64,000 nt of DNA from an uncultured Gemmatimonadales bacterium (GCA_963844035.1 CAWJMT010000004.1:160001-224000); one strand, 5' to 3'. Positions 16,697 through 43,761 are shown, counted from the first letter of the stretch. Numbers and translations: made by a program. Notes: a model not told the origin generated them from the sequence alone.

Positions 16697-16717
16697 CTCG
16701 TTGAAATTGAACGACCT

Positions 16718-17265: not shown

Positions 17266-17340
17266 CTAGCGCTAGCGCTAGCGCTTGGCGTCTAGCGTCT
17301 TAGCGTCTTAGCGTCTTAGCGTCCTAGCGTCTTAGCGTCT
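17266..17340. repeat. Short tandem repeats: (CTAGCG)x3 then (TAGCGTCT)x6
   Basis: Six octamers at 17293-17340 (one TAGCGTCC variant), preceded by palindromic TAGCGCTAGCGCTA. Confidence 0.9.
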
Positions 17341-17341
17341 T

Positions 17342-18238
17342 CTACCGCACCAGCGCCACCGCCACATCCCCGACGATCTGCAACGACGCCGCTGACACCT
17401 TATCGATCGTATCGTCGGTCGTGTGCCAGTACGGGTAGTCGAAATCGACCACGTCGATCGCGTGCACGCCCGCGCGCTGCAGTGCGACGTGGTCGTCGAT
17501 CAGCGTGTGCTTTACGCCAGGGAGGAACGACCGGCCGTACCCCAGCTCGCGCGCGATGCGCCACACGCGATCCACGACCTCGGGGGCGACGGCCTGCGAG
17601 TTGCCCTCGTAGTAGATCTCCAGGTTCTTGTCGGCCACCATGTCGAACAGCACGGCGAACAACGGTGGGTATCCGGGCGGCTGGTGCGCCGCGAAGTAGC
17701 GCGACCCAATCAGCGCCTCGGTCGAGTCGGAGAAGTTGCCGTAGTCCTCCCCGTCCACGAAGAGCAGGTCCACGCCGAGCCCTGGAGCCTTGGCCTTGAG
17801 CGCGTCCGCGACGCCGAGCAGGACGGCGACCCCGGAGGCACCGTCGTTGGCACCCGGCACCGGCAGGCGTTGGGCGGCACGGCTGGCGCTCTGGTCCGCG
17901 TGCGGCCGTGTGTCCCAGTGTGCCAGGAACAGGACGCGCTCGGCGGCCTGCGGGCGGAACCGCGCCAGGAAGTTCCGCAACCGCAACGTCTCGCCGCGGC
18001 GCGTCCGGTGGACGAACGGGGTGACGATGACCGTGTCCGCGGTGGCCTGCAGCCGGGTGAGGATCCAGTCGCCGGTTTGCTCGTGCGGCGGCGTATTGGG
18101 AATGCGGGGGCCGAAGGAGACCTGCTGCTGGAGGTAGGTGAACGCCCGCTCGCCGTCGAACTCGTGCCGGCGCGCTCCGGACCCCGCCTGGCATGCCAGC
18201 AACGGCAACAGGCAGGCGGCCCATCGAGCGCCGATCAC
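17342..18238 (-). CDS. M28 family peptidase / glutaminyl cyclase-like lipoprotein
   Basis: Lipobox LLAC, AHWDTR, GANDGASG, DGEDYG, DMVAD, DDH, WHTTDD. Confidence 0.88.
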   Translation of the reverse strand: MIGARWAACLLPLLACQAGSGARRHEFDGERAFTYLQQQVSFGPRIPNTPPHEQTGDWILTRLQATADTVIVTPFVHRTRRGETLRLRNFLARFRPQAAERVLFLAHWDTRPHADQSASRAAQRLPVPGANDGASGVAVLLGVADALKAKAPGLGVDLLFVDGEDYGNFSDSTEALIGSRYFAAHQPPGYPPLFAVLFDMVADKNLEIYYEGNSQAVAPEVVDRVWRIARELGYGRSFLPGVKHTLIDDHVALQRAGVHAIDVVDFDYPYWHTTDDTIDKVSAASLQIVGDVAVALVR

Positions 18239-21200: not shown

Positions 21201-24200
21201 ACGTAGCGGACGAAGCTCTCCGCCGTGCGCACGCCCGCCGCGGAGTCGAGCTGGAAGTCGCCGTCCAGATCCTCGCTGTCGATGGCGTCGTTGTTGCGCC
21301 CGCAGCGTGATCGGAGGTCCCCGAAGGCATAACTCGTGAGCGCGCCGTTCGTGGCGGCGCTGCATAGCGGGAGGGTGTCGACGCCCGAGCCTTTCCCGGC
21401 GTCCCAGATCCCGTCCACGACGCGATCGCTGAGAATGCCCACGTCGTTGACGGCGGCGCTCCAGGAGCGGGTGAGCGCTTCGGATTCGGTGTTGAGGCCG
21501 CCGCGGCCCGCCTCGCGGCGGCCGGCGTAGGTCGTGTCCCCTGCGGGGCTGACGGTCAGGGTTTCGGGCACAAACGCCGCCGCGTCTTCGAACACCGATC
21601 CGAAATCGAGCAGCAGCGCGGTGTTGTTGGCCTTGGCCGTGCGATGGTTGTCCTCCCACACCCAGAGCTCGAGGTATTCCACGCGCGACAGATCGATTCC
21701 GGTGGGGGAGAGCACCTGCGTGATGGAACGCCAGCGGGGGCCGTCCCGGTGGGGACGCACCCAGTTGACCGCACCGGTGCGCGAATTGGCCAGCCCCAGC
21801 ACCGTATCGGGCTTCATCATGATCCAGAGCGCAGGCTCAGCCGATTGCGTCTGCCCCACCGTGACGATCGTCGGATCGATCTGCTGAGCGTAGAACTGGA
21901 TCGGCGTGCCGTTCCGGTTGAAGGGCAGGCTCTGCCACGTGAGCGCCGCGGCGTTGCCGGTGTCGAAGGGGACGGTCGCGAACCCGAACGGCTCGGCGCC
22001 GCGGGTGGTCGTCGGCTGGCTGCCCCAGTGCCAGCCGTTGTCCACGAGCGACACAAAGCGCCCGGCCTCCGCTTCGAAGTCGTCGACAGACGCTTCCCCC
22101 AGCCGGTTGGGGCGCGGTCGCGACAACGCCGCCTCGGCCGAGACGTTGAGGAACGAGGGCGCGTCGGTGTGGATGCCCGGGAGCGCGTCGAGCAGGCGCG
22201 TGATCCACGTGGGCTTGAAGTGCAGCTCGGTGGTGATCCCACCGATGAAACTGGACGACGGCTCCGAGCCGAGCGGCGGCCGGGTGAACGCACTCTGCTG
22301 CCTCTGGAACAGGCCGGTCAGGTTGACGTTCCCACGCTCGCCGAGATCGTAGCGGGCGGCGATGCCGTAGATGGCCGTGGGCGCCACGGCAAAGGCCGCG
22401 CGCTCCTCGAATTGGGCCCGCACCTGCGTGCTGCCCGCGGCGAACAGCGAATCGGCGCCGATGAACAGTACGGTGCCCGACGGATAGTCGATGGTGTAGT
22501 CGGTGCCGCGGGTGAGGAGCCGGGTGCCCACGTAGATCCGCTCGCTCCCCTCGCGAATCTGGACGCTGTTCAGCTCGAGCGTGCCGCGGTCTCCGGCCAG
22601 CGACACGTTCGCGTGCGCGCGCAGGCTGAAAACCGACGGCGGCGCCTGGGTGGCCAGCAACGTGACCGGTGTGCGGTACAGCGAATCGTTGCGCTCCGTG
22701 GGCCCCAGCAGGGTGGAGTCCGCGAACGGGGTGAGGTGCGGGAATACGACGAAATAGTCCCGTACCGGCGCGCCCTGCTGCGGGTCGCGCGCGCGCGGGA
22801 AGACCCGGTTGTACTCGTCCAGCACCGTGGCGTCGGACGCCAGCGCGAGCCCGAGCCGGGCCAGGTAGGTCTCGTCGGTCGACACCGTCCGCTCGCGCTG
22901 GTTGACCGTCAGCGCGAGGCGCACCGATTCCCGGATGATTTCGCTGCCACCGATCCGGTAGGCGCTGCGGATCTCGAACCGGAACGACGGCAGGGCCGTG
23001 GTGACGCCGGGACGGGGATCGTAGACGAGCCGCAGCGTGTCAACGACGGTCGGATCGGGGTTGGCCACGATCGGGAACGTCCCGACGCACGGGAGGGTCG
23101 CGCTGCACCCGGTCTGCCCGACCGGGACGTAGGACACGGCGAGGTAGTCGTTCAGGTCCAGACGGTTGGCGAGCGCGAACCATACGCCGCTCGGATCGAC
23201 GTAGTAATCCTTGCCCTCCTGCAGCACCTCCCACTGAAACGGACCGGCGCGCTGCACCGAGCAGTCCACCGCTTGCGCCGGTCCCACGCCGCACGCCGCG
23301 GCCCGGACGCCGCCGATGTTCTGATTCGCTACCGAGGTGGGAGACACGGCCCGCAGGCGGTACACCCGCAGGCTGCCCACCCGGAGCGCCGGGGGAACCT
23401 GCACCGGCGACACGTTGAGCACGTCGACGGCTGGATAACCGGCGATGGCGGCCGGGTCCACCACGAAGAAGAACCGGCCGGGCTCGTAGTCGAGGTCGCG
23501 CGCCACGCGGTCGACGGGCTGCGTGTTGGTCTCGCCGATCGTGTAGGTGCGATCCTGCACGATGCTGCCCTTCTGCTGCGCGAAGATCCCGCGCAGCTCC
23601 AGCGGACCGATCTGCGCGACCCCCTGCACGCCGAAATTGTTCGCCGGGATCGCCGCCGTGATGAAGCGGGAGCGCGGCATCTGGAACGTCACATTGCCCA
23701 CCTCCACACGGCGCACGACTTCGTCTTCGAGTCCTTCGTACCACACCTGAATGTTGTTGTTGGCGTCGAACTCGCGCTCGCTGTCGAAGTCCACGCTCAC
23801 GTGCAGGCGCTGCGCCACGGTGCCGCCGGTGCGGATCGCGTATTGCGGGTTGGGCGTGATCGTCGGGAATCCTGCGTTGCAGCCGGACAGCGCTTGCTGT
23901 TGGTCGAACGCGGTGCACTGCAGGTTGCGGAACTGATCGGCCTTCATCTCGAACCGCAGGTTGAGCTGCATGCCGATGTCCGCGTATTGCCCGAGCGGTC
24001 CCGGGCGGCGCAGGGGCGGAGCGGGAAGCGGCGGTGCGGCCCCGGTGTCGGCAGCCAGCAGAACAACGGGCGCGGGGGTGAGGCCGCGCGACAGCGTCGC
24101 GCGCAGGCGCGTTTCCCACGCAGCCGCGACGAGGGCGGGTGTGGTCCGGGGTCCGAAACGTCCGCCGGGCGCGAGCGCGGCGTTGTGTGGGGCCCCGATG

Positions 24201-24322
24201 GGGGCAAAGCCGAACCCGGCGCTGAACCGCGGGACCGTGTCGTCCGCAGCTCGATCCTGCGCGTGGACCTGGGGTACGACGAGCAACAGGGCGAGAAAAC
24301 CGGCCAGGGTGGGTCGCCGCAT
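18235..24322 (-). CDS. sprA: T9SS outer-membrane translocon SprA homologue (~2000 aa; frameshift near 20010)
   Basis: Signal peptide; SprA-like blocks DFDSEREFDANNNIQVWYEGLEDEVVRRVEVGNV, FAQQKG, DYTIDYPSG, SEDLDGD, WRLYRIP, NERSL, LWIDDIRL; beta-strand-rich C-terminus. Confidence 0.85.
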
Positions 24323-28431: not shown

Positions 28432-29299
28432 ATGACGCGACGCTTTACTCAACTTGCCTGGGCCGCCGCGACGGCCACCTATCTCCTCATCATCCTCGGC
28501 GCCATCGTGCGCATCACCGGCTCGGGGATGGGGTGCGGCGACCACTGGCCGCTCTGCAACGGCAGCCTGCTGCCACCGCTCGACCTCCCGACCATGATCG
28601 AGTACGGCCACCGGCTCGCGGCGGCGGCGGTGAGCGTGCTGGTGGTCGCGCTGGCGATCTTGGCCTGGTGGGCGAGGAGAGGAGTCTCCGGAATCCCCGC
28701 CCTCACGGGCGGGGCCATCATGCCCAGGGTCAGTCAGCGCGCGGCGATGGTGAGCTACGGCGCGGTCGTGTTATTGGTGATTCAGATCCTGCTGGGTGCG
28801 ATCACGGTGAAGCTCGAGCTGCCGGCGTGGACGATCATCCTGCACCTCGGGACGGCGATGCTGCTGCTCGCGGCGCTGCTGGTGGCAGCGCGCTCGACCC
28901 CGCTAGCCCCACCCTCACGGGTGGGGCCATCGCGCGCGACGCTCGGGGCCGCGGTGCTCGGGTTGGCGACGGTGCTGATGGGCGCCCTCACCGCCAACAT
29001 GGCCGCGGCAACGGCGTGCCAGGGGTTCCCGCTCTGTAACGGCTCGTTCATGCCCACGAGTGGGCTGCAGCACATCCACTGGACGCACCGGCTGCTCGCG
29101 TACGCGCTGTTTGCTTATGTGATATGGTGGGCTGTGCGCTCGCGGGTCGCGTGGTGCGTGGTACGTGGTTGGGCTCGTGACGCTCCAAGTCGTGGTCGCC
29201 GCGGCGATGGTGCTGCTCGCGCTGCCCCCCGCGCTCCAGGCGGCGCACGTCGCCGTCGGAGCGGCGGTATGGGCGGCCCTCGTGCTCGCGGCGTTGTGA
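28432..29299 (+). CDS. ctaA: Heme A synthase (COX15/CtaA), frameshift near 29170
   Basis: GSGMGCGDHWPLCNG, IEYGHR, second C...PLCNG, HWTHR. Confidence 0.88.
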
Positions 29300-31042
29300 G
29301 CGTTCCCTCGCCGCGCGCGGTCGCGTGGCTGTGGCCGCGGGTGCGGCCGTATCGCTGGAAACTGGCGCTGGCGCTCGTGTGTCTGGTCGCGAGCGCGGCG
29401 GTCGGCCTCGCGTTCCCGCAGATCGTGCGACACCTGCTCGACGCCGCGTTCGTCCGTCACGACCGGGGCATGCTCGACCGGATCGCCCTGTTCTTGACGG
29501 GTCTGTTCACCCTCCAGGCGCTTTCCAACTTCGCGCAGACCTACCTGCTCACGGCCACGGGCGAGCGGGTGGTGGCGAAGCTGCGCGAGGACCTGTTCAC
29601 CCACCTGGTGCACCTGTCGCCCGCGTTCTTCGCCGAGCGGCGCACCGGGGAGCTGGTCTCCCGACTCTCGGCCGACGTCGGCGCGATCCAGAGTCTCGTC
29701 AGCTCGCAAATCTCCGAGTTCGCGCGCCAGACGCTCTACCTGGCGGGCGGGATCACGCTGCTCACGATCACCAACCCGCACCTGATGGCCACGACGCTGG
29801 TCGTGGTGCCGTTCGTCGTGGGATCGGGGTGGTTCTTCGGCCGGCGGCTGCGGCGCGCCAGCACGCGAGTGCAGGACAGCGTGGCCAACGCGACCGCGGT
29901 GGCGGAGGAAGCGTTCAGCGAGATCCGCATCGTGCAGAGCTTTGCCCAGGAGACGTGGGAAGCGGCGCGCTACGGGGCAAGCATGGCGGAGGTGGTGCGG
30001 ATCGCGGTGCGCCGCGCCGCGACGCGCGGTGCGTTCTTCGCCATCATCATGTTCGTCACCTTCGGCGGCACGGTGGCGGTGCTGTGGGAAGGCGGGCGTC
30101 TGGTGCTCGCCGGAGTGGTGACCGCCGGCACCCTCGTGTCGTTCCTGCTCTACACGGTGTTCATCGGGGCCGCGGTCGCCGCCCTCGTCAGCCTGTTCTC
30201 GAGCTACCAGGAAACGGTGGGCGCTGCGCGGCGCGTGTTCGAGCTGCTCGAGACGCCGCCCACGGTCGCGGATCCCCCTGCTCCCCGAGCGCTGGCGCGC
30301 GCCGGTGCGCGGCCTCGTGGCGCTCGAGCATGTCTCCTTCCGCTACAAGCCCGACCTGCCGCTCGCGGTGGACGACGTCTCGCTCCGCATCGCACCGGGA
30401 GAAGTCGTCGCGCTGGTCGGCCCGTCGGGCGCGGGGAAGACGACGCTCGCGAATCTGCTGCCGCGCTTCTGGGACGTGACGGCGGGGTGCATTACGCTCG
30501 ACGGGAACGACATCCGTACGCTGCGCCTCGCGGAGCTGCGCGGCGCGATCGGCATCGTACCGCAGGAGCCGACGCTGTTCAGCGGCACCGTGACGGAGAA
30601 CATCGCGTACGGCCGCACGGGGGCCACGGAGGCCGAGATCGTCGCCGCGGCGCGGGCGGCGCACGCGCACGAGTTCGTCGAGCGGTTACCGCAGGGCTAT
30701 GCGACGCTCGTGGGGCAGCGGGGCGTGAAGCTCTCGGGAGGCCAGCGCCAGCGCGTGGCGATCGCGCGCGCGTTGTTGAAGGATCCTTCGGTGTTGATCC
30801 TCGACGAAGCGACCTCGAGCCTGGACGCCGAGAGCGAAGGGTTGATCGAGGAAGCGCTGGAGCGGCTGCTCAAGGGGCGCAGCACGCTGATCATCGCGCA
30901 CCGCCTGTCCACGGTGCGCCGCGCGAATCGGCTCGTGGTGCTCGATCGTGGTCGGGTCGTGGAGGAAGGCAGCCACGTGGACCTGCTGGCGCTGAACGGG
31001 CTGTACGCGCGGCTGTATCAGCGGCAGTTCAAGGACGACTAA
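29296..31042 (+). CDS. ABC exporter, fused TMD+NBD (MsbA-like), frameshift near 30305
   Basis: TGELVSRLSAD, GPSGAGKTT, LSGGQRQR, LILDEATSSLD, IAHRLST. Confidence 0.92.
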
Positions 31043-31722
31043 GGCCCGTCCGGCAGTCGCGACGTCCAGTGCCCCTTGCTGTCCACCTCGACGGTGTCCG
31101 CGGGTCCTGCGGTCAGGCCGAGGTTTCGCTCAAATGCGATGCTGCGATTGGACACCCATCGTACCCCGTGGGGATTCCACCGTCTCGACCCCACGCTCCA
31201 TTCACGCCGCAGCGTATCGCCCTCGGCGATCCACACCACCAGCCCCGAGCTGTCGTTCACGGTGGAAAATGGGGTGATCAGACGACGGCCGTCCGGCGAC
31301 GGAATCGGGATATCACTCACGGTCTTGCTCCATCCCCGAACCTCGTTGAGCAGGCCGATGGCGCTGCGTTCGTAGTACTGCACGAACAGCACGTAGTACC
31401 CGATCGGCTCGAGGATCCCGAGATAGTAGAACGCGACCCGCTCGGCGCCGCGGGAGATCGGCTCGAACTTCCGATAGGTGCCGCCCTGCAGCCGCAGCTC
31501 GAGTTGGCCTCCATCCCGTTTTACCCGGTTCCCGCTCAGCGCGATCTGTCGCGGCTCGAGGACCCGCGCACATTCCTCGGAGTTGAAAATCTCCTTGCAT
31601 GGCCCCTCCTCGCCCGGAGCGACCGGCACCGGCACCTGTGCCGACACGCCGCTTACCAACTGCACCAAGGAGAGGAAGAGGACGAAACCGGGGGTGCAGC
31701 TAGAAATCCAACGCATCCGCAT
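31039..31722 (-). CDS. Secreted hypothetical protein
   Basis: Signal-peptide-like N-terminus (FVLFLSLVQLVSGVSAQ), PSPDG beta-propeller-like motif; overlaps the stop of the upstream GWxTD gene. Confidence 0.55.
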   Translation of the reverse strand: MRMRWISSCTPGFVLFLSLVQLVSGVSAQVPVPVAPGEEGPCKEIFNSEECARVLEPRQIALSGNRVKRDGGQLELRLQGGTYRKFEPISRGAERVAFYYLGILEPIGYYVLFVQYYERSAIGLLNEVRGWSKTVSDIPIPSPDGRRLITPFSTVNDSSGLVVWIAEGDTLRREWSVGSRRWNPHGVRWVSNRSIAFERNLGLTAGPADTVEVDSKGHWTSRLPDGP

Positions 31723-32308
31723 ACGCGTCGTTCCCCAGCAGCTGGCGCCAGTTGGCCCGGCTTGGCTCTCTGGGATCGTTCGAATAGACCAGGACGTAGT
31801 TGCCGAACCCCGTGATATCGACAAAGCAGTACTTCCGGGGCCGCTTGTCCCCCTGCGTGTACTTCCAAACGGTGAAGGGGAGGTTGAGCCCCAGACCACG
31901 GCGGGTCAGGGTGATATCGGGGGGGCCGTACTCGAGGTAGATGCGCCCGCGGTCGGTGCGCCACCCCGGGACGTCGCCGGCGCCACCCTCGGAGAATTTC
32001 TTGTTGACCGCTCCGATGCGCGCCGTGTACTGCTCCAGCGCCTCGTTCTTGGGTGTGTTGGGGGTAGGGTCCCGCCGCGCCCAGAAGCGCCGCAGGTATT
32101 CCCGCTTTTCGGGCTCGGTCAGGCTCGGGTAGGTCCCCTGCTCGTCTTCAAACATGAGATAGACGACCGGCCCGTACAGGCTATCGAGCTGGATCTCCGA
32201 CGCGGTCTCGAAGCGATCGCGCGCGCGCGCGGCGTTCGCCTGCGCCCAAGCGGCAGGCGCGGCAACGACCAGGGTCAAGAAAGCGAGGGTAAGGCGACGG
32301 ACAATCAC
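31700..32308 (-). CDS. GWxTD domain protein (single domain, signal peptide)
   Basis: FWARRDPTPNTPKNE, GWRTDRGRIYLEYGPPD, VWKY. Confidence 0.88.
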   Translation of the reverse strand: MIVRRLTLAFLTLVVAAPAAWAQANAARARDRFETASEIQLDSLYGPVVYLMFEDEQGTYPSLTEPEKREYLRRFWARRDPTPNTPKNEALEQYTARIGAVNKKFSEGGAGDVPGWRTDRGRIYLEYGPPDITLTRRGLGLNLPFTVWKYTQGDKRPRKYCFVDITGFGNYVLVYSNDPREPSRANWRQLLGNDAYADALDF

Positions 32309-32374
32309 CAGCTAGAGACCCCAGGCAAGGAGGGAGGTTCCCAAAACACGCCGCGCCCGCTGCAGGAACACTGA

Positions 32375-32399
32375 GCCCCGGAGCAGGTTCCTCCGGGGC
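32375..32399. terminator. Hairpin between the lipoprotein and the second GWxTD gene
   Basis: GCCCCGGAG-N7-CTCCGGGGC. Confidence 0.45.
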
Positions 32400-32427
32400 C
32401 AGGGCTCAACGCGGCCTCCCGCCGGAA

Positions 32428-33524
32428 TCAGGGCCGCGAGATCGTCGTTATGTAGTTCTTTGAGGTCGCACCAGCGTAGTTTTCGATCACGAAATAGTGC
32501 GTTCCCGCCGTGTACTTATGGTTCGCGGTCGCCTGCGGCTTGGCGCCGGTCGCGCCGCCGCCGCCGTCTTCGAAACACGCTGCTCCAAAGTTGGCGAGGG
32601 TGCTGTCGGAGCAGGCATAGATGTCGATGTCGGCAGCGGTGGGCAGCGTCCCTTCCCAGTCCGTGGTGAACTTGTACGTCGCGGTGTCCGCCAGCGTGAA
32701 CTTATACATCATGCATGGGCCGCTCGACCCAAATGCAAGCACGCCCTCCGGGCACACGGCCACATTGGCCGGCCCGGCCGTGGAGACCATGATCGCGCTC
32801 TTCCCCGCCGCGGGCAGCAGCGTCGTGATGTCCGGAGCGGTCTGCCACGACGCGTCGCCTGCCCACCGGTTACCCGTTTGGGTCACCGACACACTGGAGG
32901 GCAATGTCGACCTCGAGCCCCGGAATGAACGTCGTCACGACTCCCGCGATCGTCAGGGCACCGGGATCGGAGAATGGCGTGAGGACCTTGATGGAATCCG
33001 CGTTCACAAAGACGATGGTGCCCGGCACGTCCCCCCCGAAGGTGACGGTGACGCTGTGCCGGGTCGAACTTGAGCAGCGGGGTTGCGGAAATCTTCAGGG
33101 TGTCACCGCCCGCCGGGGTCGCACTGGACAGCGCGCCGTTGAACACGACCGGCACCACGTTCACGGTGACCGTACCCGTGAGTCCGCTGCCCGTCACCGT
33201 CAGCGTCGTCTGCCCCGGGGTCACCCCGGTGGCGATGAACGCTTGCGTAGCCCCATCCGGGAAATGCCGCGCCGTGTCCACTTCCACCGTGGCGACGGCG
33301 CTGTTGCCGGAGGTCGCGGTGATCGTGACGGGCACCGGGTTCAGCTGGTCGTCACGGGCCACGACCACGACCGCCACGGTCGCCGCCGGGTCGAGGAAGG
33401 CCACCGTCGGCGTGATCGAGAGAATAGTCGGTCCCGTCCGGAGCTCACTCGTCGGATCACTCGCGCACGCCAGGGTCGCCAACGCGAACGCCGCGCAGAC
33501 TGCTCGCTTGTGCTGTCGCCTCAT
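32428..33524 (-). CDS. Lipoprotein with Ig-like domains (frameshifts near 33058 and 32905)
   Basis: RBS GGAGAG, lipobox TLAC, Big_2-like SGNSAVATV...ATGVTPGQTTLTVT, beta-rich C-terminus with a Cys pair. Confidence 0.7.
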
Positions 33525-33557
33525 GGTCGCTCTCCACGCCGTTGTGGTGATCCGCAT

Positions 33558-34931
33558 CTAGAAGGTCGATATGTCATGGACCGCGTCGGAACTCAACGTG
33601 CGAGCCCAATCCCCCGGGGTGCGTTCCAACCGGTCGTTGGAATAGATCAGCGAGTAGTGCCCCAAACGGGTCCGGTCGAGGAACACGAACTTGAGACTGC
33701 GTTCCCGCGTGTATTTCCAGGCCTCCCACGGGAAATCCGCCGCGCTCTGCGGCATCCGGCGGACGTCGTCGGGCTCGCCGTAGCGGATCAAGACCCGCCC
33801 CCGATCGGTCCGCCATCCCGGCACCTCCGCCCCGCCCCCTTCGCGGAACCGCCGGTCGGCCTGTTTGATCCGTTCGTAGAACCCGACCTGGGTCTCGTTC
33901 TCCGGTGTCCCCGGGCTCGGGTCGCGGCGGCGCCAGAATTCGCGCAGGAACCTCAACTTGCCTGGCACCGTGAGCCCCGGGTACACCTGCATCTCATTCC
34001 CCTCCGCAATGTAGACGAGCGGGGCGAATAGCGAATCGAGGCGCGCCTCTGTCGCGTCGCTGAACATGTCAGGCGGCGGCCCTTCGCCCGAAGTTGCTGC
34101 GGCGACGAGCCGCCCGGTTTCGAACCCGGTCATGCGGAACGTGGCCAGCCGTGTCACCGTGTCCCCGCCCGCACCGATCGCGAGCCCCAGCGAGTACGTC
34201 CCGGGCGGCAATCCTGACAGGTCGATCGAGGCGGCGATCCGGCCGCCGCCCGCGCTGACAGCCGAACCGGTAGCGGGCGTCGCCACGACCAGGCGGCCAT
34301 CGGCCCCGATCACGCGTAACAGCCAGGGCACGGTTCCCGCGCTGTCGCGGTACACCTCGCAGTAGTACCACAGCACGGCCCGGTCGGGCGTGAGGGCCAG
34401 GTCGGGCGCACTCGCGATGAACAGGTTGCCCTTGCGCACCTCTGCCGGGCCCGCGGTTGTGTCCGCCCCGTTCGCGGGCCGGATCCCGTAGGCCAGCAAC
34501 AGATCCGACGCTCCCGGCCGCCCGCCGAAGCCCGTGACCGGCAGGTCCACCGTGTCCCGCGCGCCCGAGGCTGAATCCTCCACGGCGATCTGCACGTCGT
34601 ACCGCCCCGGCGCGACGGCGAAGGCGAACGGCTCGACGCTTTCCGCACCCGGCGTCCCGGTTTCCTGCAGCGGCACACGCCGGGTCCACGCATCGCGCAC
34701 CAGGGTCGTCCCGCGTTCATCGGTAACGCGCAACTCGATCCGGTACGCGGCGAACCCGCCGAGACCGCGCGTCACGCTGTTCAACATCCGGTGCGGCACT
34801 CGTACGAAGCCGTTGACCAGCGTCCGGTCGCCCCGGAAGAACCGGGTGACTTCACCCACCACTCGGGCCTGTGGTGCCGGCTGTTGCGGCGAGCCGGCCA
34901 GGACGGCGCTCAACAGCATCCAGAAGAGCAA
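33558..34931 (-). CDS. GWxTD domain protein with N-terminal beta-sandwich domains
   Basis: Signal peptide, PGRYDVQIAVED and PPGTYSL Ig-like motifs, FWRRRDPSPGTPENE, GWRTDRGRVLIRYGEPD. Confidence 0.9.
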   Translation of the reverse strand: MLFWMLLSAVLAGSPQQPAPQARVVGEVTRFFRGDRTLVNGFVRVPHRMLNSVTRGLGGFAAYRIELRVTDERGTTLVRDAWTRRVPLQETGTPGAESVEPFAFAVAPGRYDVQIAVEDSASGARDTVDLPVTGFGGRPGASDLLLAYGIRPANGADTTAGPAEVRKGNLFIASAPDLALTPDRAVLWYYCEVYRDSAGTVPWLLRVIGADGRLVVATPATGSAVSAGGGRIAASIDLSGLPPGTYSLGLAIGAGGDTVTRLATFRMTGFETGRLVAAATSGEGPPPDMFSDATEARLDSLFAPLVYIAEGNEMQVYPGLTVPGKLRFLREFWRRRDPSPGTPENETQVGFYERIKQADRRFREGGGAEVPGWRTDRGRVLIRYGEPDDVRRMPQSAADFPWEAWKYTRERSLKFVFLDRTRLGHYSLIYSNDRLERTPGDWARTLSSDAVHDISTF

Positions 34932-34937
34932 GCGACC

Positions 34938-36062
34938 CTACCAGTTCACCGTGAAGCTCAGAAAGTTGGTGTTTCCCAACGGACCCATGTTGCGCCAGGC
35001 GTAGTCGAACCCCAGGCCAAATCCGCCGCGCTGGTACCCCACGCCGAAGCCGAACGCGATGCCCTGCTGGTTCTCCTTGCTGCTCAACGCCGTGGCGAAC
35101 CCGGCTTCTGTGCCGGGATCGATGTTGTTGGCCGGCTGGTAGGTCCAGCTCCCTCGTCCGGCCACCAGGAACCCCGACTTGCCGATATCCGACAACGCGA
35201 ACTCCCCGCCGACCTCGAACCCGGCCTTGTTGTTGTTAGGCTGGTTGAACTCCGACAGCAGGGTGAAGCGCGTCTGCTCGGTGGACACCGCGTCGACCGC
35301 CAGCGCGACCCGGAACAGCACCGGCAACCCGAAGTCCTTCACCTTGTACTCGGCCGGCTGCGGCTCCTGTGGCACGTCCTCCTGTCCGGGCACCGGATCC
35401 CGCGTCACGCCCACGGCAAGCGGCGGCCCGTTGTACCTCAGAGTCGTGCCGAGGTTTTGAATCACGAACGAGGCGCGGATTGGCCGGCCGGCGGTCGTGG
35501 CGTGAAAGCTCGTGCCGAAGTCCAACGCGAAGGCGGTGGCTTTCACGTCGCCGAGCTTGTCGGAGATGAACTTCGTCGTCGCCCCCACCGAGAACCGATC
35601 GCTGAAATTCTGCGCGTAGGTCGCGCCGACGAACGTTTGCGCGACGCCGTAGGTGCCGCCGGTGCCGTCCGGCTGCTCGACGGTGTATACGGGCTGGTCT
35701 GAGAACCCGAAGTTACCGAGCTGGATGCCGAAGGCGCGCGCCCCACCCGACACCGGAAACGCCAGGCCGGCCCAGGTATAGCGGGTGTTGTCGACATAGT
35801 TGTACGTGGACACCATCGCCCCGGAGTGGTCGAGCTGGGCGGTCCCCGCCGGGTTGTAGTACATGGCGCTGATATCCGTGACCAGCGCTGCGTACGCTCC
35901 CCCCAGGGCGGTGCCACGCGCGCTGGCTCCGAGCAGCAGGAACTCAGCCGACGTCGTACCGTACGCCGTGTTGTCGATCGGGACGCTGACCTGCCCGGCC
36001 AGCCTCCCGGCCAACGGCAGCGCCGCGAGGGCGATGGAGCAGATTCGCAAAATACGCGTCAT
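34938..36062 (-). CDS. porV: PorV/PorQ family outer-membrane beta-barrel
   Basis: AEFLLLGASARGTALGGAY...AMYYNPAG FadL/PorV-type N-terminus, AFALDFG, IQNLG, FDYAW, terminal W. Confidence 0.85.
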   Translation of the reverse strand: MTRILRICSIALAALPLAGRLAGQVSVPIDNTAYGTTSAEFLLLGASARGTALGGAYAALVTDISAMYYNPAGTAQLDHSGAMVSTYNYVDNTRYTWAGLAFPVSGGARAFGIQLGNFGFSDQPVYTVEQPDGTGGTYGVAQTFVGATYAQNFSDRFSVGATTKFISDKLGDVKATAFALDFGTSFHATTAGRPIRASFVIQNLGTTLRYNGPPLAVGVTRDPVPGQEDVPQEPQPAEYKVKDFGLPVLFRVALAVDAVSTEQTRFTLLSEFNQPNNNKAGFEVGGEFALSDIGKSGFLVAGRGSWTYQPANNIDPGTEAGFATALSSKENQQGIAFGFGVGYQRGGFGLGFDYAWRNMGPLGNTNFLSFTVNW

Positions 36063-36083
36063 GGGAACGCTCCCTCTCCAGCG

Positions 36084-39000
36084 CTATTGCGCGAAGTTGA
36101 CGATGGTGAACCGGCCGATTTTCTTCTTCCCGTCGGGCGTCTCGACGTGATAGAAGTACACTCCCGACGCCACGAACTGGTTGTTGCGGTTGCGCAGGTC
36201 CCACTGCAGCTCGGCTCCGCCCGTCACGTCGTTCGCCGTCAGCATCTGCACGAGTATGCCGGACAATGAATAGATCCGGATGATGCACTGGCTCGGCAGG
36301 TTCACGAATCTCAATATCTTGCTGCTGGTGGTCTGCTCGAAGGCGTTGGTGACGTAGTATGGGTCGGGTACGGTATGGATCGTGGCCAGCGCCGAGTCGG
36401 ACGTGACCGCGGCATCGACCGTCGTGCTGGTAAAGCTGGCCCGGACGGTGAGCCCCGGCACGGCAGGCGGCCGGACCTCGCCAGGCTCGAACTTGTAGCT
36501 GCCGACCGTCCCCGTGATGTTGCCGGCGTAGAACCGCGCGTTCCACACGGTGGACGACGGCAGGGTCGCGAGCTGCATCAGGAACCAGTGGCCGTTCAAG
36601 TAGAAGATGAACCCGTTCCCTGTTGGCGCAGTCGCCCCCAACACCGCCGCATTGGCGTAGGTGGCCGACTGGAACACGACGGGCTCGAGCTTCGCGTGGT
36701 TCATCAGTGGCGCCGATACGGTGCACCCCGGGAAACCGCCCAGAAATGCGGGCGCCGGATCAACACACAAGATGTCGGTCCACGTCAGCGTCCCGGTGTT
36801 CTGGTCGGGGGTGCTCGCCGCGGCGAGCCCGGTGAACGACGAATCGTTCAGAAACCCCCAGGACGCGCGGATATTCGACTTGAACGGCACCTTCACATGG
36901 TGCGTCACATCTACCACCGAGTCCACCGTTCCTGCCGTCGCTCCCCAGTAGACCTTGAAGTCTGCGGCTCGGACCACACCGGCGGTGATCCCCTCCATCT
37001 GGCGCATCGGCTGGCTGTTCACCGTGCTGTAGCTCGACGGGTGGAAGATCCCGACGCCTGCAATGGCCCCCGCGTTGCGGGCCAGGTTGGGCTGGACGCA
37101 AGCGGCCGCCACCGGTGAACAGACCAACCCGTTGGGGTCCGCCGTGTTCTCGTTCGCGGCGCCCGCCCACCACCGCGGGCCGTTGAAATCCGAGAGTTCG
37201 GGATCACTATTGATGCTGGCGCGGCCGTACGAGGTGACACGGTAATTGCCCGTCGACCTGAGCGTGAGCCTGCGGCAGCAGCGCGTACGTCGTGTCGCCT
37301 CCGTACGTGCCGGAGAGCGCCTGATCGAATTTGATGGGAGGAAGCAGCTGGCTCGCCGAGTTGGTCGCGGAGAACTGATCCCCCGCGATTGGAATGGCAT
37401 AGGAAACCGTCGGGAAGGGACCGAGCGCCCGTACGTAATACGTAGCGGGGGTGCCACCAAAAACGTCGCCGGGGCCAACCGAGTCGATGATGAGGCGGAG
37501 GCTGTCAGCCTTCACGACCGCGGGGATGAACGCCGGGAATCCAAGCCCGATCCCGTTCGTGGGCGGCATCGGACCGGAGAAGATTCCGGTCGCGTCGAGC
37601 GACGGAAGCGCCGCTTGCGGATTCAGGACGCTGCCGTCGCCGCCCACCAGGGCGAGCGTCAACTGGCCCTGGTCGACCTGCGCTGAGTTCTTGCGGGGCA
37701 CGACCGTTTGCGCCGGCAATTTGCCTTCCAGGGATGCCGCACCAACACCAGTCGATTTGACCGAGTTCACGTCGAACGCAGACACTGTGTAGTAATACGT
37801 GAATCCATTCTTGACACCGTGGTCCACGAAGGCGAACGGGATGCCCGTGTCGGTCAGCGGCTTGCAGGTCTTCTTGATCGCGCAGGTTGTCGCGGTGGAG
37901 CTTCCGGTGACGGCAGTGTCGGCCTGGATCACGAGAATGTCGTTGGTCACGAGCCGGACACGCCCCCCGGGGGGGATCTGCACGAAGGGACTCACCAGCT
38001 GGGACGTGTCCGACACGGTGAACGGATACGCGGTGTCGAACGTCTTCGGGACCTGCAAGGTGTCGTCGACGGCGGGTCGATCGGCGGGCAGCCGGTCTGC
38101 ACACCCAACTCGGGCGCGCAGTTGGGATGCGAGACCGCTCCCGTCCAGTCGATAAACGTGGTGCCGGTCCTGTCGAACTGGGCGACCAGCTCGAGGTCCT
38201 GCGACGTCCGGCCGCGGTAGATGCGGTATCCCTCGACGTCGAACTGCCGGTAGTTCGGGTCGTACAGCGCCGGGTTGAGAGGATCAAAGGTACTCGCGAC
38301 AGCGAAGTACGGGTCGCCTGTCAGTTCAGTCGCCGATGCCTTCCACACGACGGTGACCTCGTTGTCCCCCGGAATCAGGAAGAACGGCGGCGCGTCGGGT
38401 GGGAACGGGAGCAGGAACTTCGCGTCGAATACGGCTTGCGCCACGAGACCCTTCCCGAGCAGCGAGCGCGGCACGACCGCGATCTCGTTCTGCGAGATCT
38501 TGCCGTCCGTCGGCGCGGTGTCGGCGAACGACAGCGCGCCAAAGATGCTGTCCAGCGGCGTGAGCGTCGCGAGTCCCGCCGCAAGCGATTCCGGCTGCGC
38601 GGCGTCGGGACCGGCCGGCGGATAGATGAACGTGGGCCCGCGGGCCGCGATCGCCGGGTGGTCCACCGGCGCCGCGCCGATGTAGGCGACCGCGATCGTC
38701 TGCGACTCTCCCGGCTTCAGCGTGAACGGCCCCGACGACTGGAAGAACCGTACATCGTCGTGCGCCGTGGCGATGTAGCAGACGTGGTAGTCCTTCGGCA
38801 GTTGTCCCGGCGCCTTGTGGGTGTAGGTGCAGGGCGCGTCTCCCAACGCGGTGTTGAGCGTGCCGGACAGGTAGCGGTACAGCTGCGCCGCGTTGCCGGC
38901 GTCGCCGAACGCACCGGCGTTCACCGTGGCGCTGTACAGCACCAGCCCGATCTCCCCGAGCCCGGGATTGGACGGGTTCTTGAGCGGGCTCTTCAGGTAT

Positions 39001-39992
39001 TTCACGCCCACCTCACCCGACGTGGGCGCGAACGGCGGAGCGAAGATCGTGCTGGGGTAGACGAAAGTAGACGCGAACCAGTTGCTCTTGAACGCGATTC
39101 CCATGTTGAAGGGAAGGAATACTGTGGTGAAGTTGGACTTCGCGTCGCTGGCCTCGACGTCCGCGTCCATCGCGAACGCGAAATACCCATCGGTGATCGT
39201 GTAGCCGGTGTCCGGGATCGACACGGCGAACGCGGGGTCGTTTGCCGCCTTGAACCGGGCGCCCAGGATGGCGAGCGAGTCGGCGTCGGGTCGCCCGGCG
39301 TACACGCTCGCCTTGCTGGCCGTGATGTTGGTGACGGTGAAAATCCAGTAGGTGATGTCTTCATTGCCGCTCGGGAAATTCCACGCCAGCCCCCGCTGGT
39401 CCACCAACACGCCGAGCGGATGCGGGCGGCCGGCGTTCTTGGTCGGGTTCCCGTCCCAGTAGCGGGCCCAGGCATCTGCCTGGGACGCCGCCTTGGTGCC
39501 GATCAGCACGGGGGCGTAGAGCGACGTATCGTTCGGGACGTAGGCGTCGCGCGGCCAGTTGCCGAGATCGCTGGCGTCGTTGGATTGCCAAATGAGCGAC
39601 AGTTGTTCGCCGTTCTCGTGGGAGCCGCTCGGGTCCTCGAAGAACGCGGCGGTGGTGTCGCCGGCCCAGGCGAACCCGCTGGCCGGGTCGACGACGCCCG
39701 CGATCTGGACGCCCGACCCGAAGACATATTGGTCGGGTGTCCCGCCCGGCCAGAAGCCGCCGCCCACCGTCGTGGAGCCGTTCGGGTCTACGCACACGTG
39801 CCCGGTGGCATCAAGTCCGCAGTCCCAGCGGTTGACGTTCATCCGCCCGAGGAAGCCGGCGAACAGCGCGTAGGCCCGCCGTCGCGCCGCGCCCGGGACC
39901 GGCACGCCCGTCGCGGCGGGGGCCGTCACGATCACTCCCAGCGCAACCAGCAGCGCGCACCGCAGTCCGTGCGTCAACCAAGCTTTGGACAT
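36084..39992 (-). CDS. Large (~1300 aa) secreted protein with FN3-like region and T9SS-type/FlgD-Ig C-terminal domain; frameshifts near 38058 and 37255
   Basis: RBS GGAGGAG, signal peptide, VTVVW...FDVEGYRIYR and VKNGFTYYYTVSAFD FN3-like motifs, C-terminal IHTVPDPY...IRIYSLSGILV...WDLRN...ASGVYFYHV. Confidence 0.8.
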
Positions 39993-40027
39993 GACCCCAC
40001 TCCTCCGTGAAAAAGAGCGCCGCGTCA

Positions 40028-43000
40028 TCAGAACGACAGCTCCGCCCCGATGCGGATCCTCCGGCCCGGCCCGTAGAACCGGCTTTCCGCATTCTGCAGG
40101 TTGTAGTACGCGGTGAAGGCCGCCGTGTATTCGGTGGGCGTGAACTTCCCGTCTCCGTCGCCGAAGCGTGCTTCGGCCCGCTCGAGCAGCACGCAGTCCA
40201 CCGGGCCGCTGCCGAAGTTGCCGCTGTTGCTGCCCTGCCAGTTGTTGCAGCCGCCGACGCCGAGCGACGTGAAATCCACCGTGTTATCCGGCTTGAGGAT
40301 GCCGGCGCCGTTCGCCTCGTTGATCAGGATCCCTACTTGCTCGTCAACGACCTTCTTACGGAATGTCCCGTAGTTGATGCCACCGGTCTCGAGGAACGCA
40401 TTGACGACGTTCTTGAAATTGATGATGTTGGTCCCCTCAGCGAACAGGGTCCAATCGCTCCGGCCCACCTTCAACCCCTTGGTGATCCGCAGGTCCAGGT
40501 TCTTGAACCACGGCAGCGTCGAGGTGTTCAGCTCGCCGTTCGGTACCAAAAACTGGCACGAAAGCCCGCACCGGCTGTCCAGGGTGTAGCCCTGATCCTG
40601 CGCCACCAGCAACGTGTACGGCAGACCGCTGACCACGCGGAATGTCGCGAAGGCCCCCAGGTTCCGCAGCACGCCGCCGAGTAAGCTGCCCTTCATCCAG
40701 TCGTCGGGGAACTGCAGTGAGGCGGACCCGCTGATGTTGTGCGTGCGGTTGTCATCCGTCGCCTGGATCGCCTGCGCCGGGTCGCTCGTCTGCCCGGTGA
40801 ACGCATTGATCGACCGTCCCGCCAGCGTGGTGTAGCTGAACGGGTCGGAGCCGGTGTTCTTCGCCACCTGGAAGGTGTAGGAGACCGCGCCGCGGAACAG
40901 GTTCGAGAAGCGGCGGTCGAGCCGGACGTCGATGCCCCGCACGTTCCCGAAGTCCGCGTTGGTCGCCGCGCGCCAATCGCCGTTCTCGTAGGTACCCGGC
41001 ACAGACGAGGGTGACAGCGGGTCCGGCAGGTGTACCAGTCGCACGCTCATGTCCGACAGCTTGTCCTTGTTGTAGGCCGCCACGTCCAGCACCATGTCTC
41101 GGCTGAACGCGTGCCGGACCGCGAACTCGAAGATGATGGTCTTGCCGAAGTTCAGATCCCGGCCGTAGGTCTGATTGCGGTTGGTCACGCTCAAGTCGGT
41201 GTTGAGCCCGCGGAACATCAGGTCGAAGTCCGGCACCTGCACCTGGTGGGCGTAGGAAAGCCGGAAGTTCGTGTTCTCGGTGACCGGAAACGATACCTGG
41301 ACCCGTGGACTCCAGGCCGAGTGGACCGGCGCCGGTATGAACTTCGCCGTGGGATTGTAGGGATCGAACGGCGTGGGGTCCACCGGAATTCCCGACGCTC
41401 CCTCCTCCGTGATCGGAGGCATGGACGAGATGCGCCCGGGAGTGTAGGGGAAGCTCGCCCGCGTGTCGTAGCGGTCGTACCGCAAGCCACCGACGATGAC
41501 CACGTCGCCCAAATCCAGCCGGTCTTCCAGGTACCCCCCCCAGCGTACGGGCTTTTCGTGGTACGCGTTGAGCCCGAACGACGAGTTCATGCCGTTGGTC
41601 GCGTTATAGCGCGCCGTGTCGAAGAAGTGGAATTCGCCGCCCAGCTTGACCCGGTTGAACCGGTCCGCTTGCCAATCGAAGTTGGCGCGTCCCTCCATGC
41701 GCGACTCGAGCGACATGTCGAGGGCGTTGTCCAACCCGCTGGTCCACAACGACAACCGATTGCTTTGCGACACGCCGTACGGGTTCATCCGGTAGGGCTG
41801 CACGGAGTTCATGTCATTGTTGTTCAAGTACGGCACGTCGTCCTGGCACGCCCCTTCGCCCGCCGCGACACACTGAATCTGGCGGTCGTCCAGGAACCGC
41901 ACGTCCGTATAGGTCGAATCCTTGATGCGGACGGTATGGGTGGTGTTGAAGTCCACCACGTAGTCGAACGGATGAAGGATGAAGCCGCCAAAGGGGTCGC
42001 GCGACGAGGCCTCCGATTCGCGCGTCAGGGGAGCCGCGATCCGGCGGTCCTTTTGATAGGACAGGTTCACGTCCAGCGCCATCGCCCGCTCGGTGGACCG
42101 TGCGAGGTTCTGCGTCCAGTTCAGGATCGTGGCGTAGCTCGTGGCGCTCGTCCCGGTGTAATTCGCCGGGTTGTAGAGGCTGCTGGCCGCACCGCTCACG
42201 ATGACCTGGCCCAACCCCAGGTTCCGATTCATCTCGTTGCTCGCGAGCCCGAGGAGACTGATGCGCGACCCCGATCCGTAGGTGTATTGCAGCTTGGCGG
42301 TGGCCGTGTTGGCGCCCCAGGCTGAGATCGGCGTTCGCAGCCCTTGGCAGTCGTAGCCGTAGTTGTCGCGGATTTGCGTCGCGGTCGCACTGGTCGCCGC
42401 TCCCGGAGCGGCGCCGTACTCGCCGCAGGTGCCGTTGTACTGCACGAAGCGCGGGACTACAATGGCGGCCGTATCGGTGAGCGCTTCTCCCCAGGTCCCG
42501 GGCTGGTGCACCACCGTATCGACGCCGCTCATGATCCAGATCGGCCGATCGTTCTGCGTGCCGGCCGGGATGTCCATCGGCACATTCACCTGCCCGGTCC
42601 CGCCCAGGTCCGTGGTCGTCATCGACGCCTTCTGTCCCTGCATCGTGCCGGCGACGAAGAACGTCAACCGGCCGATGATCGGTCCACCAAAACTCGCCTC
42701 GAGGCGGTTGAAGCCGACGGCGTCCCACATGCCGACGTCGTCCGTCTGGTAGGACAAGGCCCCCTGAAACTTGGATCCGCCGGCTCTGGTCGTGTAGGCG
42801 AGCACGCCCGACTGGGCGTCGCCAAACGCCGCAGACAGCGCGCCGGTCGTGACCGATGCCTCTTCCACCGCGTTCGTACCGACCGTGAGCGGGCTGGAGC
42901 CGCGCTGCGTGTTGCGGACCAGCACGCCGTCCACGTACACCGCCGCCTCGCCCGGGCGACCGCCGCGCACCGACACGCCCTTGGTCTTGTCGCTCTCCAC

Positions 43001-43504
43001 GACGCCGGGTTGGAGGCTCAGAACTTTGCGGAGGTCATCGACGGGGAGGTTTTGCAGATCGGCGGAGGTGATGGTCGTCTTGGAGGTCACCTGGTCGCGC
43101 GGGACAATCGGGTTGGCGGCAGCCTCGACAGTCACCGCGCCGATCGCCACGGCGGATGCCGTGAGCTTGATGTTGGTGGTCAGCGTCTGACCGCCCAGCA
43201 CGCGAATGCCCGTCACCTCGGATGCGGTGTACCCGATAAACTTCGCCCGGACAGTGTAGACACCGGCCGGGACGTTGTTCATGAAGTAGTAGCCGCGTTC
43301 GCTCGTCAGGGATCCGAATGCTGTCCCGACGAGCGTGACTTGCACGCTCCCGATGGGCGCCCCCGACTGATCGGTGACGGTGCCCTCGATCTTCCCTGTG
43401 GCCTCTTGAGCAGCGAGCGCGGTGATGGCGCACCCGAGCACCACCGCCGACGCGACGCCGATCGCGGATAGGCGCGCGAAAGCGCGACGCACACGATGCG
43501 TCAT
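40028..43504 (-). CDS. TonB-dependent receptor with N-terminal carboxypeptidase-regulatory-like domain (1158 aa)
   Basis: RBS GGAGG; TGKIEGTVTD, LSLQPGV, VRGGR, YVDGV plug motifs, GLRYD, SPR, C-terminal GRRIRIGAELSF. Confidence 0.92.
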   Translation of the reverse strand: MTHRVRRAFARLSAIGVASAVVLGCAITALAAQEATGKIEGTVTDQSGAPIGSVQVTLVGTAFGSLTSERGYYFMNNVPAGVYTVRAKFIGYTASEVTGIRVLGGQTLTTNIKLTASAVAIGAVTVEAAANPIVPRDQVTSKTTITSADLQNLPVDDLRKVLSLQPGVVESDKTKGVSVRGGRPGEAAVYVDGVLVRNTQRGSSPLTVGTNAVEEASVTTGALSAAFGDAQSGVLAYTTRAGGSKFQGALSYQTDDVGMWDAVGFNRLEASFGGPIIGRLTFFVAGTMQGQKASMTTTDLGGTGQVNVPMDIPAGTQNDRPIWIMSGVDTVVHQPGTWGEALTDTAAIVVPRFVQYNGTCGEYGAAPGAATSATATQIRDNYGYDCQGLRTPISAWGANTATAKLQYTYGSGSRISLLGLASNEMNRNLGLGQVIVSGAASSLYNPANYTGTSATSYATILNWTQNLARSTERAMALDVNLSYQKDRRIAAPLTRESEASSRDPFGGFILHPFDYVVDFNTTHTVRIKDSTYTDVRFLDDRQIQCVAAGEGACQDDVPYLNNNDMNSVQPYRMNPYGVSQSNRLSLWTSGLDNALDMSLESRMEGRANFDWQADRFNRVKLGGEFHFFDTARYNATNGMNSSFGLNAYHEKPVRWGGYLEDRLDLGDVVIVGGLRYDRYDTRASFPYTPGRISSMPPITEEGASGIPVDPTPFDPYNPTAKFIPAPVHSAWSPRVQVSFPVTENTNFRLSYAHQVQVPDFDLMFRGLNTDLSVTNRNQTYGRDLNFGKTIIFEFAVRHAFSRDMVLDVAAYNKDKLSDMSVRLVHLPDPLSPSSVPGTYENGDWRAATNADFGNVRGIDVRLDRRFSNLFRGAVSYTFQVAKNTGSDPFSYTTLAGRSINAFTGQTSDPAQAIQATDDNRTHNISGSASLQFPDDWMKGSLLGGVLRNLGAFATFRVVSGLPYTLLVAQDQGYTLDSRCGLSCQFLVPNGELNTSTLPWFKNLDLRITKGLKVGRSDWTLFAEGTNIINFKNVVNAFLETGGINYGTFRKKVVDEQVGILINEANGAGILKPDNTVDFTSLGVGGCNNWQGSNSGNFGSGPVDCVLLERAEARFGDGDGKFTPTEYTAAFTAYYNLQNAESRFYGPGRRIRIGAELSF

Positions 43505-43745
43505 GGGTCTACCCTCCGAATACGTGAAAGCGCTTGGACGACCGACCAACCATTGACGCAACGACGGCACGGCGCTCCTCCATCTAGACGGCCCAGATCG
43601 GAGTGCTAACGGCGGACGGCCCCAAATTCGGGCACCGCACTTTTGCGAAGATGACACCCGTTTGGGGGGTCCGCAAGACCCCATGTTGGGTTGGGACTTT
43701 AGGTCAATCCGGCGCGAAAAACTCTGAGACTTTCAGGGCGCCCCT

Positions 43746-43761
43746 AGCAAGACGGGTGCCT
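43746..43761 (-). promoter_or_regulatory. Sigma54 -24/-12 promoter upstream of the TBDR operon
   Basis: Minus strand AGGCAC-CCGTC-TTGCT, close to consensus TGGCAC-N5-TTGCW, about 240 nt before the TBDR ATG. Confidence 0.65.

Follow-up and report, generated by a model that had tools for sequence, protein, structure and literature searches.

A conserved Gemmatimonadales operon joining type IX secretion parts to a TonB-dependent transporter

A 64,000-nt stretch from the genome of a soil Gemmatimonadales bacterium (84% complete, 39 contigs), referred to here as the window, carries a run of minus-strand genes in which a TonB-dependent transporter is followed by a large secreted protein with a C-terminal sorting domain (CTD) like those of type IX secretion systems (T9SS) and by an outer-membrane barrel of the PorV/PorQ family. 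As a variant in which T9SS parts are combined with a TonB-dependent transporter, this operon is real, conserved and uncharacterised. From the perspective of its function, the large protein would be exported by SprA, held uncleaved on the operon barrel and capture the substrate on behalf of the transporter, replacing the SusD lipoprotein, a scheme that has about an even chance of being right in its entirety.

The conservation of the gene order carries this finding. A set of 232 large genes, corresponding to 200 distinct ones at 97% identity, was used to assess it; likeness to the large gene decided which loci entered the set, and they are related by descent, so that the counts are not independent of each other. 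Among the 147 distinct loci with both flanks available, 130 have the transporter and the barrel, 12 have neither, 3 have the barrel only and 2 the transporter only, that is, both genes are kept or lost together in 142 loci. The transporter is located directly upstream of the large gene in 156 of the 177 loci with enough flank, and the gene directly downstream of it is the barrel in 149 of 165. The order transporter, CTD protein, barrel, which had been pointed out in an earlier reading of the window made from the sequence only (hereafter, the sequence-only reading), is therefore conserved in these 130 of 147 loci.

The run and its conservation

The co-directional run described in the sequence-only reading was recovered with all seven of its genes in place and on the minus strand. 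Its features, together with the translocon gene that lies beyond it, are the following (positions in the window, with the supporting evidence in brackets; AF2, AlphaFold2; ORF, open reading frame):

40028..43504, minus strand: TonB-dependent transporter, 1158 aa, not SusC (PF13620, PF07715, AF2, Foldseek)
36084..39992, minus strand: large secreted protein, ~1,300 aa, split over three frames in this assembly (tblastn search with an intact protein from the same genus, AF2 of a homologue)
36084..36380, minus strand: T9SS type A-like C-terminal sorting domain, last 98 aa of the large protein (TIGR04183)
34938..36062, minus strand: PorV/PorQ-family barrel, 374 aa, operon-specific paralogue and predicted anchor of the large protein (NF033709, phmmer, tree)
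33558..34931, minus strand: GWxTD-domain protein, ~455 aa, core member (TIGR04514, conserved position)
32428..33557, minus strand: lipoprotein, ~370 aa, frameshifted near 33050, with a weak PPC-like C-domain (lipobox-like pattern, PF04151 below cut-off)
31700..32308, minus strand: second, short GWxTD protein, lineage-restricted addition (TIGR04514; few loci)
31039..31716, minus strand: ORF with a hydrophobic N-terminus, probably outside the system (no family match, no homologue)
18235..24322, minus strand: sprA/sov translocon gene, frameshifted and run into an M28 peptidase ORF (TIGR04189)

Beyond the barrel, the conserved order continues with a GWxTD gene in 130 of 134 loci and with the lipoprotein gene behind it in 117 of 127. 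A second GWxTD gene is present in only 11 of 104 loci, and the last ORF (31039-31716) has neither a family match nor a homologue in any fetched locus. The seven-gene run thus stands as far as positions are concerned, while these last two genes are not part of its core.

A single query detected the large gene in 106 of 401 genomes of the phylum, including 97 of 166 from its own family and none from two other large families (0 of 95 and 0 of 70). The operon is absent from many near-complete genomes. The closest relatives of the large protein returned by a close query are almost all from Gemmatimonadales or Gemmatimonadota, and a search of representative sequences gave 1,480 matches at E<=0.001, to which no taxonomy is attached. 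Promoter and terminator signals in the operon are at or below shuffle expectation, and a search of a plasmid collection gave no match. Contigs assembled from soil RNA libraries contain pieces that are 90-99% identical across the operon, although assembled contigs of this kind do not allow transcription to be inferred.

In this assembly, tblastn with an intact protein of the same genus shows that the large gene is divided into three pieces in changing frames. Relatives have it intact (52 ORFs of 1230-1400 aa among 79 loci), so that the length of about 1300 aa read from the sequence applies to a single ORF there and to three pieces here. Related-strain contigs from two runs of one study are one base shorter at 37268, the second shift site of the large gene, and a related-strain contig from one run of a different study is one base shorter at 33054, the shift site of the lipoprotein gene. 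For the first shift of the large gene, near 38040-38076, no related-strain contig showing a missing base was found. Other genes of the assembly are also broken, namely sprA, pilT and lptF/G, which indicates sequencing error as the likely cause of the frameshifts in the large gene and in the lipoprotein gene. Frameshift-fused or broken ORFs are likewise present at 1680-8344 and 28432-31042, and include glycosyltransferases, a CtaA-like gene that runs into an ABC (ATP-binding cassette) transporter and a pilS/pilR-like pair, as expected if the assembly is prone to errors.

The transporter, the large protein and the barrel

The assignment of the first gene to the TonB-dependent transporters was borne out at several levels. 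Both its CarboxypepD_reg (PF13620) and Plug (PF07715) domains score above the Pfam cut-offs, and the protein shows a signal peptide (judged by eye), an N-terminal carboxypeptidase-regulatory-like domain, a TonB-box-like motif, a plug and large loops. The AF2 model presents the plug and 22 barrel strands, counted by hand (predicted local distance difference test, pLDDT, 78.8; predicted template modelling score, pTM, 0.79), and in Foldseek it comes closest to TonB-dependent transporters of siderophores, pyrroloquinoline quinone (PQQ) and B12 (E 1e-24). According to motif column counts, an EITVxA-like stretch before the plug, which we take to be the TonB box, is conserved among the transporters, and the genome itself gives five TonB_C matches above cut-off and two of ExbB. 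The transporter does not belong to the SusC/RagA family (TIGR04056, 27.5 bits against a cut-off of 368), and the gene directly downstream encodes the CTD protein, not SusD. In agreement with the earlier claim that no SusD-like lipoprotein follows, neither PF07980 nor PF12771 has a match in the 84% complete genome, in a search where the Bacteroides thetaiotaomicron control was positive. A helical domain is predicted for the last extracellular loop (40031-40500, mature residues ~1014-1110), in which two cysteines are invariant and a GxGDG stretch is conserved; this loop is a candidate for the place where the large protein docks.

The large protein has no family match beyond its tail in Pfam and profile scans, and a sequence search of its profile against solved structures gave 0 matches. 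Its fold was modelled with AF2 on an intact homologue of the same genus from which the tail had been removed (pLDDT 85.7). Residues 9-498 (~490 aa) are predicted to adopt a galactose-mutarotase-like beta-supersandwich, whose best VIA match, obtained repeatedly, is the N-domain of dextran dextrinase (Z 19.4, root-mean-square deviation 3.2, 253 aligned residues). This fold is common to the N-domains of glycoside hydrolases (GH) of families GH15, GH94, GH65 and GH116 and to aldose epimerases (Z up to 19). The matches are confined to the N-domain (~9-498), and an (alpha/alpha)6 catalytic barrel after the supersandwich is not in the model. The invariant polar residues of the N-domain include H162, D247, D249, D335, D384 and R386. 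In the ESM Atlas, N-domain look-alikes belong to unnamed clusters (0.93-0.94) with Fidelibacterota and Balneolota as taxa, based on 2-4 records, and residues 760-1195 have only matches below 0.9.

After the N-domain there is one interrupted beta-sandwich, which we take to be fibronectin type III (FN3)-like on the basis of motifs and secondary structure; the FN3-like motifs reported before are thus reduced to this sandwich, which has no Pfam match. A variable, beta-rich middle stretch comes next, with a column identity of 0.39-0.56 over residues 800-1100. The tail is the most conserved 100-residue block of the protein. The tail reaches 21.6 bits against TIGR04183 as a protein (cut-off 23) and 25.5 bits, above cut-off, in the genome scan, which leaves the proposed T9SS-like C-terminus about at the cut-off. 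It also resembles the C-terminus of PorZ (E 3.5e-7), which is paired with PorQ. No lipobox is seen in the large protein by eye.

The barrel scores 135.9 bits against the PorV/PorQ family model NF033709 (cut-off 90) and remains under the PorV and PorQ equivalog cut-offs, which indicates a paralogue. It has no FadL/Toluene_X match at E<=0.01, and its best solved structure in a phmmer search is PorV (6h3i, E 0.0013), which agrees with the earlier description as PorV-like and fits this family better than the FadL transporters. The same genome has a second PorV-family gene, which lies among housekeeping genes close to era, prfB and lysS. A tree of 26 sequences places the operon barrels together (support 99) and separates them from this housekeeping paralogue, as expected for a barrel dedicated to the operon, and a third separate group contains the barrels of a second operon type described below.

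Regarding the remaining members, the two genes identified as GWxTD from the sequence both pass TIGR04514 (88.6 bits for the first and 86 for the second, cut-off 28); a literature search on GWxTD proteins found nothing relevant. A lipobox-like pattern is present in 117 of 120 homologues of the lipoprotein, whose C-domain is PPC-like under the cut-off (PF04151, E 0.004). As a guess, the GWxTD protein and the lipoprotein are probably assembly or hand-over helpers.

Export through SprA and the role of the large protein

The SprA homologue noticed some 7 kb away is well supported by its score, as this sprA gene reaches 444 bits against TIGR04189 (cut-off 200); it starts ~6.7 kb beyond the run, and in many relatives there are open frames of ~2,000-2,100 aa. 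Within a sample of 41 genomes, SprA was found in 34, the large gene in 21 and a PorV-family barrel above cut-off in 33. Every one of the 21 genomes with the large gene is SprA-positive, and both the large gene and a PorV-family barrel above cut-off are missing from the 7 genomes without SprA. A SprA fragment is also present in 79 of 80 further genomes with the large gene (80 of the 92 listed). This co-occurrence fits the export route anticipated in the sequence-only reading, and the large protein is probably exported through SprA. The PorU sortase is above cut-off in none of the 41 genomes, where 12 weak matches all fall on the CTD end of the model (no control genome scored above cut-off either). 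Because no sortase was found, the large protein is likely to be retained on the operon barrel; the uncleaved CTDs of PorA, PorU and PorZ (PMC11285876) and the type B cargo anchored by carriers (PMC10994853) provide precedents. That it works physically with the transporter is somewhat more likely than not.

Taken in order, the large protein would cross the inner membrane by Sec, its tail would bind the operon barrel inside SprA and, with no sortase found, the protein would stay on this barrel at the surface, beside the transporter, where the supersandwich domain may capture the substrate for TonB-driven import. As to this substrate, the best guess is a glycan or glycoconjugate. The lid role replacing SusD, first suggested from the sequence, receives only indirect support, from three sides: the large gene and the transporter are linked in presence and absence, the N-domain is predicted to be a supersandwich, and the same order appears in an alginate locus of Rhodothermus. 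The complex prediction of transporter residues 364-860 with residues 5-503 of the large protein scored 0.00 in two runs with the controls not folded, a result that speaks neither for nor against a contact. In a low-rank coevolution analysis of 144 paired sequences, the top pair between the transporter and the large protein has a z of 14.9, compared with 12.2-12.4 in two shuffles and 8.8-10.8 in five other co-inherited pairs, a signal that tracks a split into two clades.

Several observations weigh against this scheme. In profile searches run without a positive control, GldM was found in none of the 41 genomes and in none of 401 Gemmatimonadota genomes; GldL, GldN, Pfam GldM and PorP gave nothing in the own genome, again with no positive control and with GldK and SprE outside the search. 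In Flavobacterium johnsoniae, as described in the accessible part of PMC10994853, cargo loads onto PorV in SprA without energy, and its extraction requires energy, with the GldLM motor pulling carrier and cargo out. With no such motor found, the scheme does not explain how export would be completed. The putative sorting tail scores near the TIGR04183 cut-off, and a 143-aa protein with a CTD-like domain has homologues in 35 of the 41 genomes, including 3 of the 7 SprA-less ones, so that a CTD-like tail is no proof of SprA export. Likewise, the fold of the N-domain gives no ligand, since a shared fold alone does not indicate one.

Gene content adds further points of this kind. Orphan large genes are scattered on a tree of 82 sequences, 60 of them sampled from 141 full-operon copies, with 9 changes of which at least 7 are forced, and the 3 loci with large gene and barrel that lack the transporter show that the pairing is not strict. 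The recurring neighbours of the operon are an M24 peptidase, an extracytoplasmic function (ECF) sigma factor, DUF92, CtaA/UbiA, an ABC transporter, an amino acid permease and LptF/G; unlike in a polysaccharide locus, none is a carbohydrate-active enzyme (CAZyme) among the 18 cluster representatives, of which 11 have a Pfam match and 7 have none. The sequence-only reading had identified the parts and had left out that the T9SS motor and sortase are not found and that orphan large genes exist. Some of these orphans share a genome with a full operon. Extra large genes without a transporter or barrel of their own, in some cases arranged in tandem or within a few kb of the full operon, were seen in loci L253, L255, L266, L267, L064 and L089; they could be exchangeable partners.

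Four other explanations can be considered. It is fairly unlikely that the large protein is exported and anchored as proposed and serves as an adhesin or surface coat, with the transporter as a co-regulated structural or signalling partner that it does not feed. This would suit the fixed position of the operon among housekeeping genes with no catabolic neighbours identified, the repeated orphan duplicates and the variable middle region; however, it sits badly with the joint retention or loss of transporter and barrel (142 of 147 loci), with the occurrence of this gene order in a locus for alginate utilisation and with the conserved TonB-box-like motif.

A second, decidedly unlikely possibility makes the transporter an energiser that, via TonB-ExbBD, helps to release its own barrel-cargo pair from SprA, in the manner of the TonB-receptor-like PorF, the operon then being a self-powered T9SS cargo module. 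It would account for the presence of SprA without any GldM found across the phylum sample, for the energy that release requires in F. johnsoniae and for the distance of ~10-27 kb to sprA on the same strand in many genomes; PorF is moreover a poorly characterised T9SS component in the available text of PMC8754138. Against it stand the 13 of 34 SprA-positive relatives that have no match to the large gene, the subtilase-CTD and barrel pairs with no adjacent transporter (see below) and the lack of any NCBIfam match named PorF, although that library may hold no such model.

Thirdly, the large protein may act at the surface as an epimerase-like or lyase-like enzyme, processing a polymer that the transporter would then import. 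Aldose 1-epimerases use the supersandwich fold in catalysis (Z 11-14) and the N-domain has invariant polar residues, but the best matches are non-catalytic N-domains limited to residues ~9-498, the model has no (alpha/alpha)6 barrel and no family is matched beyond the tail. This is distinctly improbable, and the enzyme option left open by the sequence-only reading is weakened, as no catalytic domain was found. Finally, the barrel as a BamG-like anchor of the operon lipoprotein, in a unit serving outer-membrane assembly, the tail of the large protein being no export signal, is very improbable: BamG is indeed a 14-strand FadL-family barrel that anchors a lipoprotein, with a homologue in Gemmatimonas aurantiaca (accessible part of PMC12611786), and the operon does contain a conserved lipoprotein, but the barrel is above the PorV/PorQ cut-off with PorV first among solved structures, directly follows the CTD gene in 149 of 165 loci and is missing with the operon from many near-complete genomes, while BamG is essential in F. 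johnsoniae.

Apart from the operon, other putative cargo proteins and barrels were encountered. A 143-aa protein consisting of a signal peptide and a CTD-like domain only (L100:628-1059, corresponding to G000 C3:154927-155355, plus strand) scores 24.6 bits against TIGR04183, over the cut-off, and could be a plug, spacer or carrier-occupying protein. A second ORF with signal peptide and CTD only lies behind an smc-like gene (L101:692-1130, G000 C35, minus strand); in the matching locus of a relative (L108:7261-9522), its tail recurs with 50% identity at the end of a 753-aa subtilase. With these two additional ORFs, the view of the own genome as having a single cargo is ruled out. The design of the operon recurs in relatives with unrelated cargo, which speaks for the proposed scheme. 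In 3 of 17 regions, subtilase-CTD genes are each followed by a PorV/PorQ-like barrel with no adjacent transporter (L107:9961-15304, L111:4848-8209 and L114:8834-12231). Relatives also have a second operon type with a TonB-dependent transporter, a 1386-aa CTD protein, which shares only the tail with the large protein, and a barrel; in L103:5832-19636 and L105 this operon further includes a small outer-membrane barrel (weak PorG match, E 0.0095), a 610-aa protein and a divergent gene for a protein with tetratricopeptide repeats (TPR) and GWxTD. A weak PorV-like barrel (43.7 bits) at G000 C27:33025-37336, after frameshifted genes with HEFQH zinc-peptidase-like motifs, is a possible third locus for a barrel-anchored surface protein.

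According to a tentative generalisation, the Gemmatimonadota T9SS would work without GldLM and sortase, and each cargo would stay on its own PorV-family barrel. The commonest cargo would be a giant lid of a TonB-dependent transporter, a second way of solving the SusD problem that would exist in Rhodothermus polysaccharide loci too, and release would be powered otherwise, the candidates being TonB-ExbBD via the transporter or the PilB/PilT/PilC proteins encoded behind sprA. With respect to the latter, comEA-like, pilB, pilT and pilC genes follow sprA on the same strand, and divergent lptF/G genes precede it, in the window (12621-24322) and in L277-L292, in 16 of 16 loci from three families. Synteny alone could account for this arrangement, or it could point to what drives or makes use of SprA.

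Comparison with known systems and significance

Literature searches that covered few subscription papers returned no published description of this system, and the accessible part of 10.1101/2025.01.14.632903 deals with a different subject and has nothing on it. What was already known comprises SprA and the family names in genomes of the Fibrobacterota-Chlorobiota-Bacteroidota (FCB) group, and the gene order, printed once as annotation; the Rhodothermus alginate context, the pattern of a cargo with its own barrel and the co-occurrence counts are new. The printed case is the alginate locus of Rhodothermus marinus MAT378, annotated and unstudied, in which a TonB receptor, a T9SS type A domain protein, a PorV/PorQ family protein and a hypothetical protein precede the lyases (PMC9530828, Fig. 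2 legend), and "SusD" is absent from the main text of that paper. Judging from the printed annotation only, this order is the same as in the operon, including the hypothetical protein of ~465 aa. Compared by description, the loci differ in that the Rhodothermus genes are placed among alginate lyases and encode a smaller receptor (~934 aa) and CTD protein (~726 aa).

With the T9SS of Bacteroidota, the system shares SprA, PorV/PorQ-family barrels and type A-like CTDs, which are present and co-occur. It differs in that GldM, GldL, GldN, PorP and PorU were not found (in searches with no true positive control) and in its few cargo proteins, several with their own barrel. As excerpted, the literature states that a complete T9SS is found only in Bacteroidetes (10.1101/031039), that a T9SS may be present in Gemmatimonadetes and that PorA, PorU and PorZ keep an uncleaved CTD (PMC11285876), and that type B cargo remains on alternative carriers (PMC10994853). 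Among carrier-anchored cargo (PorP/SprF type B; PorU, PorZ, PorA), the likeness lies in a CTD protein predicted to sit on a dedicated small barrel. In contrast to them, the operon combines a type A-like tail, a co-encoded PorV/PorQ-like barrel, a cargo with no relationship to theirs outside the tail and, as the first gene, a TonB-dependent transporter.

Regarding lidded transporters, the operon resembles SusCD, BtuBG, XusAB and TbpAB in that a large-loop TonB-dependent transporter is followed by the gene for a predicted surface partner. Unlike in SusCD, the transporter is not SusC, the partner has no lipobox, is not SusD and would be tethered via a second barrel, and there is no CAZyme cluster. 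In BamG-BamH, a 14-strand FadL-type barrel likewise anchors a surface protein (accessible part of PMC12611786); compared by description, BamH is a lipoprotein and BamG is essential, whereas the barrel discussed here scores as PorV/PorQ and follows a CTD gene. The same source gives Chlorobiota as the sole FCB phylum without BamG/H, with SprA and SusCD lacking too, and G. aurantiaca as having both BamG and BamH.

If the proposed mechanism is true, a lipoprotein-free design would be added to the lidded outer-membrane transporters, and there would be an explanation for the way in which soil Gemmatimonadales, which are abundant, and other FCB lineages present large capture proteins. The conservation of SprA, barrels and cargo without a detectable motor, although GldLM is held necessary for release, raises a testable question. 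Rhodothermus, whose alginate locus shows this gene order, is available in culture, and the substrate of that locus is known.

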